DNA of 64,000 nt from an uncultured Chlorobiota bacterium. Lineage in GTDB: Bacteria; Bacteroidota; Bacteroidia; Bacteroidales; JAADGE01. Location: the NCBI GenBank assembly GCA_947311445.1, contig CAMZKV010000008.1, positions 5,145 to 69,144 on the forward strand. The letters are read 5' to 3'. This document shows positions 1,634-61,076 of the stretch, in pieces. Within the stretch, counting starts at the first letter, position 1, and the number at the start of each line of letters is the position of its first letter. The position numbers were made by a program, and so were the translations under genes. Below the pieces are notes generated by a model that saw only the letters and a list, made by a program, of their open reading frames with translations, had not been told where the DNA came from and did not search any database.

Positions 1634-4600
1634 ATGAAAAATTCAAACAAACTATATACAGCCCTAAAAAATAGAGTACTCGTTCTTGATGGTGCAATGG
1701 GAAGCCTTATTCAAACACACAAATTAGATGAAGCAGGTTTTCGTGGAGAAAGATTTAAAAATTGGCAGCTTGATTTAAAAGGCAACAATGACCTTCTTTC
1801 GTTAACTCAGCCACAAATTATAAAATCAATTCACACACAATATCTTGAAGCTGGTGCAGATATTATTGAAACTAACACCTTCAATGCAAACTTAATCTCA
1901 ATGGAAGATTATGATATGCACCAATACAAGCTGGTTTATGAAATGAACCTAAAATCTGCACAAATTGCCCGGGCTGTCTGTGATAAATTTTATGAAAAAA
2001 ATAAAAACAAATTTCGCTTTGTTGCAGGCTCAATTGGCCCAACAAATAAAACAGCATCAATGTCGCCAGATGTTGAAGACCCAGGCAAACGTGCAGTAAC
2101 TTTCGATGATGTTGTTGCAAGTTACACTCCACAAATAAAAGGTTTGCTCGATGGCGGTGCAGATATAATTCTTATTGAAACAGTTTTTGACACACTAATT
2201 GCAAAAGCTGCACTTTTTACAGTGCAAAAAGAAGCAAAAGAACGAAATATAACTATTCCAATTATGGTTTCAGGAACTGTTACCGACAAAAGCGGAAGAA
2301 CACTTTCCGGACAAACCGTAGGAGCATTTATAAGTTCTCTTTCGCATGTAGATTTGCTAACAATTGGGCTAAATTGCTCAACAGGAGCATCGGATATGCT
2401 ACCTCATATTGCCGAAATGTCAGAAAAATCTAACTTTAAAATTTCAGCACACCCAAATGCAGGAATGCCAAACCAGTTTGGAGAATATGATGAAACACCC
2501 AAAAAAATGGCTGTGGAAGTTAAGCAGTTTTTAGATAATTCTTATGTTAATATTATTGGAGGTTGTTGCGGAACCACACCGGAACATATTCACGAAATTG
2601 CAAAAATTGCCGAGAAATCTCATATTCATAAAGTTTCAGAAAAAGAAATAAAAAGTAAACTTAGCGGTTTAGAACTTTTAGAAATTAGTAAAGAAAATAA
2701 TTTTATAAATATTGGTGAACGCACAAATGTTGCAGGCTCATTAAAATTTGCAAGATTAATAAGAGAAAAAAAGTATGAAGAAGCACTAACTATTGCTAGG
2801 CAACAAGTTGAAAATGGTGCTCAAATTATTGATGTTTGCATGGACGATGCAATGCTTGACGCAGAAACTGAAATGATAACATTTCTTAACCTTTTAGTTT
2901 CAGAACCGGATATAGCAAAAGTGCCTATTATGATTGATAGTTCGAAGCATAATGTAATTATTGCAGGACTAAAATGTTTGCAAGGCAAAGCAATTGTAAA
3001 TTCCATAAGTTTAAAAGAAGGTGAAGAAACTTTTATTCAACACGCAAAAGAAATTCGCCAATATGGTGCAGCTGCCGTAGTTATGGCTTTTGACGAAAAT
3101 GGACAAGCAGCAACATATCAAGAAAAAATAGACATCTGTAAACGGGCTTATGACATTCTCACACAGAAAGTTAACTACCCACCACAAGATATTATTTTTG
3201 ACCCGAATATACTTACAATTGCAACAGGAATTGAGGAGCATAATAATTATGCTATTGATTTTATTGAAACAGTAAAATGGATTAAAAAACACTTGCCTTA
3301 TGCAAAAGTAAGTGGAGGAATTAGCAATCTATCTTTCTCATTTAGAGGCAATAATATAATTCGAGAAGCAATGCACTCTGTGTTTTTATATCATGCTGTA
3401 AAAGCAGGTTTAGATATGGGAATTGTAAATGCAGGAATGTTACAAATTTATGATGAAATACCGAAAGATTTATTGCAACTTACAGAGGATGTTATTTTTA
3501 ACAAAAGTAAAGATGCCACAGAAAAATTAATTGAATATGCTGAAACAGTAAAAAGTTCAGGAAAAAAAGAAAAAAAAATTGAAGATTGGCGGAAAAACCC
3601 TGTTGATGAGCGATTAAGCTATGCTTTGGTAAAAGGCATTACAGAATTTATTGATGAAGATGTAGAAGAAGCAAGGAAAAATTACAAACAAGCAATTAAT
3701 GTAATTGAGCAACCTTTAATGGCTGGAATGAATAAAGTAGGAAAACTTTTTGGAGATGGAAAAATGTTTCTTCCGCAAGTTGTAAAAAGCGCAAGAGTTA
3801 TGAAAAAAGCTGTTGCAATTCTTTTGCCATATATTGAAGCCGAAAAAGTTGAGGGAGAAAATAGTTCTGCCGGAAAAATTCTTTTGGCAACCGTTAAAGG
3901 CGATGTTCATGATATTGGGAAAAACATTACAGCTGTAATTTTAGCATGCAACAATTTTGAAATTATTGATTTGGGTGTTATGGTACATACCGAAAAAATA
4001 CTGGAAGAGGCTGAAAAACAAGATGTTGACATAATCGGTTTAAGCGGACTTATTACACCATCTTTGGAAGAAATGGTAAATGTTGCCAAAGAAATGCAAA
4101 AGCGAAAAATGAAAATGCCTCTGCTAATTGGAGGGGCAACAACTTCAAAAATTCACACTGCCGTGAAAATTGCACCGGAATATGATGGTGCTTCGATTTA
4201 TGTTGTAGATGCATCACAATCTGTGGGAATTACACAAAAACTAATTCAAAATAAAGATAATTTTATTGAAAATTTGAATGCAGAATATGAAAAAGTAAGA
4301 GAAAAACACGCTAACAAAAAAACAAAAAAATTAATTTCCTTGTCGGAAGCAAGAGAAAATAAATTTGTTACAAATTATAAAATTTCAAAACCTAACTTTA
4401 TAGGAATAAAAACTTTAAAAAATTTTCCTCTTGAAGAAATTTTACCATATTTCGATTGGACATTCTTTTTTCATGCTTGGGAAATAAAAGGAAGATTTCC
4501 TGAGATAACAGACCCTGCGGGTTTCCAAAACCCGCAGGGTCTGTCAGATGAAGACAGTCAAAACCCGCAGGGTCTTTCCCAAAAAGCAAAAGAAGCAAAA

Positions 4601-5368
4601 AAACTCTACGATGATGCACAAGAGATGCTAAAAAAAATAATTTCTAAAAAATGGCTTCAAGCAAATGCCGTAATAGGATTGTTTCCTGCAAACTCTGTTG
4701 GTGATGATATTGAAGTTTTTAATGAAGAAGGAAAAAAACTTACAACTTTTAGATTTTTAAGACAACAAAACAAAAAACAAAATAATAAACCCAACTTATG
4801 TCTTGCAGATTATATTGCTCCCAAAACAAGCAAAAAGCAAGATTACATAGGCACATTTGCCTTAACAACAGGACTTGGAATTGAGAAAAAGGTAAAAGAA
4901 TTTGAAGATGCAAATGATGATTATTCTGCAATAATGCTAAAAACTTTGGCAGATAGATTTGCAGAGGCTTTTGCCGAATTATTGCATAAAAAAGTTAGGA
5001 ATGAGTTTTGGGCTTATGCAGAAGAAGACCCTGCGGGTTTTAAAAACCCGCAGGGTCTGGCAGACTTATTTAAAGGAAAATATCAAGGAATACGCCCAGC
5101 AATTGGCTATCCTGCTTGTCCGGAGCATTCTGAAAAACGAGTTTTATTTGATTTATTAAATGCCGAAAAAAACACAGGAATGAGCCTAACAGAAAATTTT
5201 TCAATGTATCCGGGAGCATCAGTAAGTGGACTTTATTTAGCAAATTCTGAAGCAAAATATTTTAACTTAGGAAAAATTACAGAAGAACAAATTGAGGATT
5301 ATGCTGAAAGAAAAAAAATTAGCTTTGAACTTGCAGAAAAGTATTTGAGGAGCAATTTAGGATATTAA
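1634..5368 (+). CDS. metH: cobalamin-dependent methionine synthase
   Basis: 1244 aa with full MetH architecture: Hcy-binding (GGCCGTTP), pterin-binding, B12-binding (GDVHDIGKN), and activation domain ([14 protein letters not shown]). Confidence 0.95.
4509..4575. repeat. GC-rich palindromic element inside metH CDS (two arms plus an extra third arm)
   Basis: cagaccctgcgggttt (4509-4524), loop cca, aaacccgcagggtctg (4528-4543). Then a small hairpin ctgtc-agatgaa-gacag (4541-4557), then a repeated arm aaacccgcagggtct (4561-4575). Confidence 0.9.
5026..5058. repeat. second copy of the same palindrome inside metH CDS
   Basis: agaccctgcgggtttt (5026-5041), a, aaaacccgcagggtct (5043-5058). This is a 33-nt near-perfect palindrome in the same codon phase as the first copy. 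Confidence 0.9.
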
Positions 5369-5436
5369 AATTTGAACAGTCATTATTTTTCCAATATAAT
5401 TTACATTTTTGGTTTCGTGATAAAAAAAACAAAAAT

Positions 5437-6393
5437 ATGAAACTAGTTGACAAACTAAAAGATACAAAAAAAACATACTTTTCTTTTGAAATTTTACCGC
5501 CAATGAAGGGCGGAAGTATGGAGGATATATATAGTGTTATTGATCCATTAATGGACTTTGACCCAATGAATATTAATGTAACATATCATCAGCAAGAAGT
5601 TGTTTATAAAAAAAATAAACATGGTGTTATAGAAAGAAAAACAATAAGAAAACGCCCGGGAACAGTTGCTATTTCTGCGGCAATAAAATATCGTTACCAA
5701 AAGCCAATTGTTGTTCCGCATTTAATTTGTGGAGGATTTACAAAAGATGAAACAGAAGATGCATTAATAGATTTAAATTTTCTTGGAATGACAAATATTC
5801 TTGTTTTACGAGGCGACCCTCCGGCAAATCATAAATATTTTAGGGCAGAAACAGACGGGCATGTTCATACAAGTGGACTTATAAAACAAATTATGCACAT
5901 GAACCAAGGGCGTTATTGTGATGAAAGTTTGCACAATATTAGAAAAACAAATTTTTCCGTAGGAGTTGCCGGTTACCCCGAAAAACATAACGAAGCACCA
6001 AATATTAAGTCGGACATAAAATATTTAAAACAAAAAATAGATGCAGGAGCAGAATATATAGTTACGCAAATGTTTTTTGATAATCAAAAATATTATGATT
6101 TTGTAAAACTATGTAGAAACGAGGGAATAGAAGTTCCAGTTATACCGGGAATAAAACCAGTAAGAACAAAAAGAGATTTAGAACTTCTTCCTCAAGTTTT
6201 TAATATTGATTTACCGGAAGAACTCGCTTCTGAAGTAGTAAAAGCAAAAAATAATAAAGAGGTAAATGAAATAGGAATTGAATGGACAATAAAACAGTCT
6301 AAAGAATTAATAAAATTTGGAGTACCAGCAGTTCATTATTATACAATAGGAAAATCCGATAATATAAAAAATATTGCGAAATCAGTTTTTTAG
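5437..6393 (+). CDS. metF: 5,10-methylenetetrahydrofolate reductase
   Basis: 318 aa; FSFEILPP N-terminus and YIVTQMFFD motif typical of MetF. Lies immediately downstream of metH. Confidence 0.88.
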   Translation: MKLVDKLKDTKKTYFSFEILPPMKGGSMEDIYSVIDPLMDFDPMNINVTYHQQEVVYKKNKHGVIERKTIRKRPGTVAISAAIKYRYQKPIVVPHLICGGFTKDETEDALIDLNFLGMTNILVLRGDPPANHKYFRAETDGHVHTSGLIKQIMHMNQGRYCDESLHNIRKTNFSVGVAGYPEKHNEAPNIKSDIKYLKQKIDAGAEYIVTQMFFDNQKYYDFVKLCRNEGIEVPVIPGIKPVRTKRDLELLPQVFNIDLPEELASEVVKAKNNKEVNEIGIEWTIKQSKELIKFGVPAVHYYTIGKSDNIKNIAKSVF

Positions 6394-61042: not shown

Positions 61043-61076
61043 AAAAAAGGTTGTCTTTTAAGACAACCTTTTTTTG
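61043..61076. terminator. hairpin terminator between convergent genes
   Basis: aaggttgtc / ttttaa / gacaacctt flanked by an A-run and a T-run. Confidence 0.7.

Follow-up and report, generated by a model that had tools for sequence, protein, structure and literature searches.

In the closest known counterpart of the element reported here, TnpA_REP subclass 2.4, the hallmark is that repetitive extragenic palindromes (REPs) flank the tnpA_REP gene and that an in-frame insert lies between the HuH motif and the Y motif of its product (Quentin et al., 2018, PMC6006769). This subclass is group 4 of the tyrosine transposases associated with REPs (RAYTs) of Bertels et al. (2017), which is common in Cyanobacteria, Chlorobia, and Caldilineae and patchily distributed over many classes (PMC5581495). 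REPs are also found inside genes, in frame and sometimes two per open reading frame (ORF), in several species (Di Nocera et al., 2013, PMC3733652), and the same study reported CGTC-type repeats in Chlorobi and Bacteroidetes, the CGTC tag being shared by the Rickettsia palindromic elements (RPEs), for which no dedicated transposase is known. Here I describe a 33-bp palindrome that occurs twice, in frame, in the methionine synthase gene metH of an uncultured Chlorobiota bacterium, within a 64-kb stretch of DNA (contig CAMZKV010000008.1, positions 5,145 to 69,144; hereafter the window, whose numbering is used unless a locus is named). With a probability of roughly 0.85, the palindromes in metH are members of a REP family tied to a RAYT/TnpA_REP tyrosine transposase system in a low-GC Chlorobiota/Bacteroidota lineage.

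The host gene (1634-5368, + strand) encodes a full-length cobalamin-dependent methionine synthase of 1244 aa that has all five Pfam domains of MetH (PF02574, PF00809, PF02607, PF02310, and PF02965) and matches the PDB sequence 1K7Y with E = 2e-87. The first palindrome, AGACCCTGCGGGTTT-cca-AAACCCGCAGGGTCT, occupies 4510-4542 and encodes MetH residues ~960-970, preceded by T, while the second, AGACCCTGCGGGTTT-taa-AAACCCGCAGGGTCT, lies at 5026-5058, starts 516 bp (172 residues) past the first in the same ORF and frame, and encodes residues ~1132-1142, preceded by E. Both 33-bp units are translated as DPAGF[Q/K]NPQGL, 11 codons each. An earlier note on this DNA, made from the letters alone, had described a perfect 16-bp inverted repeat at the first site, a small hairpin behind it, and a third arm, all read through in frame; its coordinates and bases were right throughout, the repeat extending at its full length to 17 bp per arm (4508-4524 and 4528-4544, loop cca), and the second copy went unreported. 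Copy 1 is followed by an added block, likewise of 33 bp (4543-4575, + strand, 11 residues), which consists of gtcagatgaagacagtc and a solo right arm, AAACCCGCAGGGTCT, at 4561-4575, and which together with 4541-4542 makes the small hairpin ctgtc-agatgaa-gacag (4541-4557). This block is a partial second REP or a duplicate; the 16 nt between copy 1 and the solo arm, gtcagatgaagacagt, showed by eye no convincing similarity to the left arm or to downstream sequence.

Exact 15-nt arms occur five times in the window, compared with an expectation of 0.43 matches even at a tolerance of up to three mismatches, and the observed count was not reached in any of 100 shuffles; five arms in 64 kb are not a matter of chance. 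The RNA folding energies of the two hairpins are -31.8 and -27.5 kcal/mol (z = -10 and -8 relative to shuffles), and the 33-nt element folds at -18.4 kcal/mol as single-stranded DNA. At 33 bp, with perfect arms of 15-17 bp, the element falls within the 20-40 bp of the short, stable palindromes known as REPs. Its composition is foreign to metH: the two elements have a GC content of 61% and 55% as opposed to 33.5% for the gene, in line with what the earlier note had remarked about the arms, their GC content at third codon positions (GC3) is 0.57 as opposed to 0.20 in the remainder of metH, and the Ala codon GCG is confined to them, being used at none of the 102 other Ala codons. Each 15-nt arm is in itself nearly palindromic (AGACCC-TGC-GGGTTT; 4510-4524 and 4528-4542), with a weak single-arm DNA hairpin of -2.2 kcal/mol, so that the 33-bp unit amounts to two small units in inverted orientation, each able to form a hairpin, nested in the manner of a REPIN. 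A terminator scan found no terminator-like site at 4300-5500, and neither metH hairpin is followed by a U tract, for which reason a reading of these hairpins as intrinsic terminators was rejected. Rfam searches, run on 4300-5300 at E <= 10 and on the whole window at the gathering score, returned for the palindromes only noise-level matches to miRNA-type hairpins.

The palindrome recurs in related genomes as a dispersed repeat. Scanning one genome per species (185,579 species) with a pattern of two 13-nt arm cores and a loop of 1-9 nt gave 25 loci, and a metagenome collection gave 31 further loci. Chlorobi RB_MAG_00012 has seven strict copies on six contigs, Chlorobiota L_MetaBat.177 has copies on four contigs, and further copies were found in M_MetaBat.100 and Bacteroidales bin10061. 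In low-GC genomes (27-39% GC), every copy of the unit has a length of 33 bp, AGACCCTGCGGGTTT-NNN-AAACCCGCAGGGTCT, with variation only in the central three bases. Its boundary is sharp: 66 of 68 flanks have an A at position -1, C is enriched at -2, and there is no conservation further out. The full copies in low-GC loci number 43, of which 32 are intergenic or at a gene edge and 11 clearly coding. All 11 coding copies use the DPAGFxNPQGL frame and fall into four host sites, namely two in metH, one in the RAYT gene (~220 aa) described below, and one in a gene for a PrmC-like methyltransferase; the other two frames of the element would yield Arg/Val-rich or Cys-containing peptides, with a stop codon for some loops. 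Many dispersed and mainly intergenic copies, as expected of a REP, are thus found in the relatives, and the copies of the 64-kb window lie in metH alone. The earlier note had suspected an in-frame palindromic element from a mobile repeat family and had proposed to look for it in relatives, which is where this search found it. Locus L007 contains a compensated variant, AGTCCC...GGGACT, twice, at places apart from each other and with the same loop, as expected from the spread of a variant copy, and some intergenic copies at other loci have T runs. The scan of viral contigs returned no match to the palindrome, and hence gave no sign of a phage vector, and a protein search with a 53-aa tandem query of the REP peptide had no match either. 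One match, in Mycobacterium tilburgii (L022), shares only the 13-nt arm cores that the pattern itself prescribes and was set aside as a chance terminator-like hairpin.

Five of the loci link the palindrome to a transposase gene. L007, L012, L031, L041 (truncated), and L063 encode a ~220-aa HuH-Y1 protein whose HuH motif reads MPNHFHFL and whose Tyr motif reads YLHYNPV, and which matches the NCBIfam family NF047646 (REP-associated tyrosine transposase) with E = 5e-17, though at a score under the curated cut-off. Its only significant PDB match (E <= 0.001) is E. coli TnpA_REP (4ER8, E = 3.8e-4), and several of its homologues have been named 'REP element-mobilizing transposase RayT' by JGI. Palindromes precede the start codon of this RAYT gene by 12-28 nt and follow its stop codon by 7-29 nt: L007, L012, and L031 each have an upstream, a downstream, and an internal in-frame copy, L041 carries an array upstream and, up to where the locus ends, a degenerate left arm inside the gene, and L063 has an upstream copy. 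DNA homology between the RAYT loci extends from base 1 of the upstream palindrome to the downstream one, the neighbouring genes being different, and homology bounded by REPs in this way is the arrangement published under the name 'REPtron'. One and the same metagenome-assembled genome (MAG) is the source of L007 and L023 and therefore holds a RAYT gene with flanking REPs, intergenic REPs (L017 and L021), and a metH with both inserts. Within the RAYT protein, the DPAGFxNPQGL peptide lies between MPNHFHFL and the Tyr motif, and nearly all members of an alignment of 45 homologues have [DN]xxGF[QK]NxxGL at this place, with xx pairs that covary as the palindromic DNA dictates. The internal palindrome was confirmed at the DNA level in L007, L012, L031, L058, L059, L060, and L061, which include Psychroflexus, Formosa, Fodinibius, and Salegentibacter. 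An internal REP is a published feature of RAYT genes, and the metH palindromes are a further instance of something already known.

The upstream array of L041 (941-1894) comprises at least eight palindrome copies in tandem with a 131-bp period, directly 5' of the RAYT gene that starts at ~1922; a CRISPR array was considered and rejected, because the whole 131-bp unit repeats, including the sequence between the palindromes. Separately, the RAYT homologues of Psychroflexus torquis ATCC 700755, Formosa sp. A9, and Salegentibacter sp. HM20 lie between cas9 and cas1-cas2 of type II-C loci (L058 4537-11925, L059 5613-12039, and L061 2677-8917), whose CRISPR repeats of 46-47 nt, with a 76-bp period, are unrelated in sequence to the REP. 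Cas genes are not adjacent to three further homologues (Fodinibius L060, L062, L063). A limited literature search, which took in a paper on the type II-C system of Flavobacterium psychrophilum, returned no mention of a cas9-RAYT-cas1 synteny. In P. torquis, a tandem duplication (L058 9292-9731 and 9876-10316; copies 80-92% identical) moreover lies between cas9 and the intact RAYT gene and comprises the 5' portion of this gene, the region upstream of it, and the internal palindrome.

Comparison with other MetH proteins identifies the metH palindromes as insertions. None of 57 MetH proteins retrieved by BLASTP (49-54% identity) has either of the extra segments. At site 1, 28 residues separate a conserved I from a conserved EA, as opposed to 7 in a typical MetH, which agrees with the ~20 extra residues that the earlier note had estimated against the E. 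coli protein, and at site 2, 21 rather than 15 residues lie between two conserved Tyr. The only carriers of the extra segments are the window, L006 (Chlorobi RB_MAG_00012, whose metH region is 93% identical in DNA to the window over 7.5 kb), L023 (Chlorobiota L_MetaBat.177, 82% identical), and P0001/L057 (a metagenomic fragment with 77% DNA and 78% protein identity). Site 1 is likewise occupied in L006 and L023, and site 2 in L006, L023, and L057 with identical arms, and the extra peptide is encoded by a palindrome in every carrier; a long loop without palindromic DNA was not encountered in the alignment. L023 has a single palindrome at site 1, without the 33-bp block that holds the small hairpin and the third arm and that is present in the window and L006, which identifies the block 4543-4575 as a later addition in the lineage of these two. 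Residues flanking site 2 are freely gained and lost among the orthologues.

Both inserts start, at residues 960 and 1132, inside the activation domain PF02965 (residues 932-1228), and not at the boundary between the cobalamin and activation domains, where the earlier note had placed the first. An AlphaFold model of the last 372 MetH residues, built on a 54-sequence alignment, has a mean predicted local distance difference test (pLDDT) score of 90.5. The lowest blocks of ten residues are, in model numbering, 91-100 (59), 101-110 (69), and 261-270 (60), all others being at 76 or above, and insert 1 corresponds to residues 87-114 and insert 2 to residues 260-270; the inserts are thus predicted to be the only two low-confidence segments, without a regular fold, of an otherwise intact activation domain. 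In a Foldseek comparison, the model aligned to the E. coli activation domain 1MSK with a template modelling (TM) score of 0.92, normalised by target length, and a root-mean-square deviation of 2.4 A. By this model, both inserts are translated as flexible loop extensions, and mapping onto the activation-domain structure, as the earlier note had advised, thus supports placement of the inserts in loops.

The same 15-nt arms also occur in DNA of 52-66% GC, where the loop is usually one base longer and the unit accordingly has 34 bp. The hosts are mainly Anaerolineae MAGs (60-66% GC) from sludge, groundwater, and sediment, with JBAQCH01, CAZVGR01, UETR01, and JAAEKA01 among them; the loci, on these and other mid-GC contigs, are L001, L002, L008, L009, L013-L015, L018-L020, and L025, with metagenome loci among L028-L056 that have a GC content above 0.5. 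Many of the Anaerolineae loci are mutually orthologous and hence amount to few independent sites, and some of the orthologous copies decay. Long ORFs run across several copies and would encode what looks like a large restriction-modification (R-M) methyltransferase (L013, L020, and L036) or an FtsK-like protein (L040 and L052), although ORF calls are unreliable in such high-GC DNA, and the spanning ORFs use other frames, for example QTLRVSENPQGL and DPAGFRKPAGS. The identical arms in low-GC Chlorobiota/Bacteroidales and in Anaerolineae might go back to a complete REP-RAYT unit having passed recently between phyla, and horizontal sharing of such a unit would be the likeliest reading; tblastn and a hidden Markov model built from 120 homologues found no RAYT gene in any of the fetched Anaerolineae loci or in the window.

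Two observations on individual Anaerolineae loci may be added. Contigs L008 and L039 are 99.2% identical over 8 kb, yet the REP and its flanks (L008 5798-5831 and L039 4229-4261) differ at several positions and by one indel, which suggests local turnover or conversion at the REP. L008 further has two REP copies (3746-5831) around ~2 kb that contain an HNH endonuclease-like ORF (4995-5576) and a small ORF without an assigned function; the gene that follows downstream starts with MCGRFT and resembles, by eye alone, an SOS-response-associated peptidase.

Set against TnpA_REP subclass 2.4 and RAYT group 4 (PMC6006769, PMC5581495), the family is alike in that a short hairpin repeat, rich in GC, is scattered and found mostly between genes, in that its copies flank a single HuH-Y1 gene, and in that this gene itself carries one copy in frame, placed between the HuH motif and the Tyr motif. 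NH[IFV]H, the HuH motif of the subclass, is present as NHFH, the Tyr motif, here Y[LI]H[YN]NP, is a loose fit to YIxNNP, and the reported range of the subclass (Bacteroidetes, Chlorobia, Caldilineae, and Cyanobacteria) fits the low-GC Chlorobiota/Bacteroidales and Anaerolineae hosts. Unlike that subclass, the element has no GT[AG]G foot, its ends AGAC...GTCT are fully symmetric, and it is only 33 bp long, while F-E, F-I, or F-R stands at the position of the 'WQ' motif. The intragenic REPs of Di Nocera et al. (2013; Opitutus terrae uvrA and Thauera) resemble the metH copies in lying in frame in conserved housekeeping genes, sometimes twice per ORF, in adding ~10-30 residues, and in their proposed position in loops (PMC3733652). 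That study stressed hosts in DNA repair and replication, whereas here the host is MetH, the phylum is another one, and there is neither a GTAG nor a CGTC tag; beyond it, the present inserts have been retained across four diverged orthologues. What is new, a REP family without the canonical GTAG foot and metH as a host gene, is a modest addition within a described kind.

Two further systems show partial likeness. The 33-bp palindrome shares with RPEs, which are said to have been first described by Ogata and colleagues in 2000, the presence of palindromes in frame in functional ORFs, compatible with folding, as well as between genes. RPE-1 elements are ~100-150 bp long, whereas the present unit has 33 bp, is linked to a RAYT, has no CGTC tag, and resides in a different host. 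It is hence similar in behaviour and not a member of that family, so that the likeness to RPEs drawn in the earlier note stands for the in-frame behaviour and falls for the identity, which is that of a REP with a cognate RAYT. REPINs, attributed to Bertels and Rainey (2011), reportedly consist of two inverted near-palindromic units that form one long hairpin, with single units thought to be immobile and decaying. Each 15-nt arm of the metH element is likewise a near-palindrome and the solo arm is decaying, but the analogy is structural only, as REPINs have ~70-110 bp and the present unit has ~33 bp and a weak single-arm hairpin. The note's author knew of no such elements in Bacteroidota; REPs and RAYTs have in fact been described for Bacteroidetes and Chlorobi, including in-frame cases (PMC6006769, PMC3733652, PMC5581495).

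Several observations weigh against assigning the metH palindromes to a REP-RAYT family. The 64-kb window contains neither a RAYT gene nor an intergenic copy, and the family and its transposase are accordingly seen only in relatives. The classical mark of a REP is missing, as the flanks of the element have no GTAG or GTGG (or CGTC) tetranucleotide. The RAYT scores 62 bits as opposed to a curated cut-off of 80 for NF047646, and 17-18 bits for Pfam Y1_Tnp as opposed to a cut-off of 23. A closely related metH with an empty site was not found, the exact target and the insertion footprint are therefore not visible, and among the fetched loci searched for empty sites none was homologous to the window outside metH; the sole candidate is L002, which compared with L008 (both Anaerolineae) is missing ~60 nt including flanks, and this gap may be a deletion rather than an unoccupied target. 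I know of no REP family for which transposition in vivo has been shown directly. Finally, all 30 arm bases at site 2 are identical in the four orthologues, with variation confined to the centre of the loop.

This retention of the stems is the observation that a purely neutral passenger does not predict. Third codon positions of metH are 83% (L006), 71% (L023), and 65% (L057) identical to the window, and G/C-ending codons would be expected to be especially unstable at a GC3 of 0.20. At site 1, L023 has a G to A change in one arm and a C to T change in the other, by which pairing is kept, while in L006 the unpaired solo arm has two substitutions (AACCCGCACGGACTT) and the paired arms have none. 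A rough hand estimate that allows for shared ancestry gives ~0.46 per unchanged third position and ~4e-4 for ten such positions. Perfect or compensated stems in the face of this divergence mean that pairing has been maintained.

The rival that best survives holds that the hairpins are of REP origin and have since been domesticated, their stems now being selected for a function in metH such as a ribosome pause, transcript protection, or a DNA/RNA binding site for RAYT. It can draw on the unchanged arms at site 2, on the rare GCG, CCG, CAG, and CTG codons that are retained in a gene of such low GC3, on the compensatory change in L023, on the fact that the sole unpaired arm is the sole arm to have drifted, and on the high stability of the hairpins. 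But intergenic copies are equally perfect, even across phyla, which makes retention look like a property of the family rather than the consequence of a role specific to metH, and conversion between copies, hairpin-templated repair, or a constraint from recognition by RAYT are all possible causes. The residues flanking site 2 vary freely, the lack of a U tract speaks against terminators, and the in-frame hosts in low-GC loci (MetH, RAYT, and the PrmC-like protein) are functionally unrelated; the R-M methyltransferase and FtsK-like ORFs of Anaerolineae would extend this range, with the reservation that classification is unreliable in high-GC DNA. Domestication is on this evidence unlikely, if worth keeping in mind, and it is only tentatively that the stem pattern would be ascribed to selection on intragenic RNA or DNA structure, for example for a translational pause in the activation domain or a RAYT docking site. 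An in-frame REP in metH is most likely a tolerated passenger.

A second rival keeps the mobile palindrome and removes the transposase, taking the element for one of CGTC or RPE type without a dedicated enzyme, or for a miniature inverted-repeat transposable element (MITE) mobilised by a DDE transposase, with the RAYT genes nearby by coincidence. The missing GTAG foot and the CGTC-type repeats reported in Chlorobi and Bacteroidetes (PMC3733652) would suit this reading, which is nevertheless quite improbable: there is no CGTC tag, copies stand beside the RAYT gene at all five RAYT loci, which come from different genomes, and homology between these loci ends at the REPs. A MITE, with 70-300 bp, terminal inverted repeats, and target-site duplications, is in addition a poor description of one continuous palindrome of 33 bp, far below that size.

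Highly improbable, too, is an innovation at the protein level, in which selection would have favoured DPAGFxNPQGL for a part in reactivating MetH, with the palindrome in the DNA as a mere by-product. The peptide is indeed conserved in the four orthologues and always read in the same frame, but the same DNA is mostly intergenic, the spanning ORFs of Anaerolineae read other frames, the covariation of the x-x residue pairs among RAYT homologues follows the DNA, and AlphaFold assigns low confidence and no regular fold to the inserts. That the palindromes were created by an assembly or binning artefact or a chimeric read is barely credible. Palindromes can indeed lead to errors of assembly, and the window and its close relatives were all assembled from metagenomes; yet both sites are occupied in four independent assemblies that stem from different projects, and the flanks diverge normally around an intact reading frame.

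If the metH palindromes are REP copies, their history can be sketched by analogy with HuH-Y1 enzymes of the IS200/IS605 type, IS608 TnpA, and E. coli TnpA_REP. The 33-nt unit would fold into a hairpin on single-stranded DNA, for instance at a replication fork, and RAYT would recognise the hairpin, cut beside it, and rejoin the strand, so that copies spread; mobility of the 33-bp element would in this scheme be catalysed by RAYT. Most surviving copies would be those that came to lie between genes, and the few intragenic ones would survive because the unit is exactly 11 codons long, because one of its frames gives a harmless, loop-forming peptide (D-P-A-G-F-x-N-P-Q-G-L), and because they landed in surface loops. 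Two copies would thus have inserted into the activation domain of MetH in an ancestor shared by at least four of the lineages sampled, a further half copy would have been added later at site 1, and the inserts would presumably be neutral for the enzyme.

As to the surroundings of the host gene, a SAM riboswitch (1517-1620, + strand; Rfam RF00162, 84.5 bits, E = 1.6e-18) forms the leader of a metH-metF operon and ends 14 nt 5' of the metH start codon, and an ORF with a domain match to methylenetetrahydrofolate reductase (MTHFR, metF) follows downstream at 5437-6393. With the riboswitch on its 5' side and metF on its 3' side, the REP-bearing gene is the first gene of a SAM-controlled methionine operon. 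Elsewhere in the window, an unrelated perfect 15-bp palindrome at 61043-61074, AAAAAAGGTTGTCTT-aa-AAGACAACCTTTTTT, with A and T runs on either side, is probably a bidirectional terminator.

The locus offers a clean natural case of a transposase-linked palindrome that twice became part of an enzyme both essential and highly conserved and has long persisted there, and it shows which loops in the activation domain of MetH can accommodate 11-28 additional residues. It serves as a warning for annotation, in that GC-rich blocks of 33 bp within low-GC coding sequence can be REPs and not errors. For the uncultured low-GC Chlorobiota/Bacteroidota lineage, it adds a REP family without a GTAG foot, and it makes two questions testable, namely why the stems of orthologous REPs stay perfect, be it through selection, conversion, or hairpin-templated repair, and whether REP-RAYT units cross phyla.

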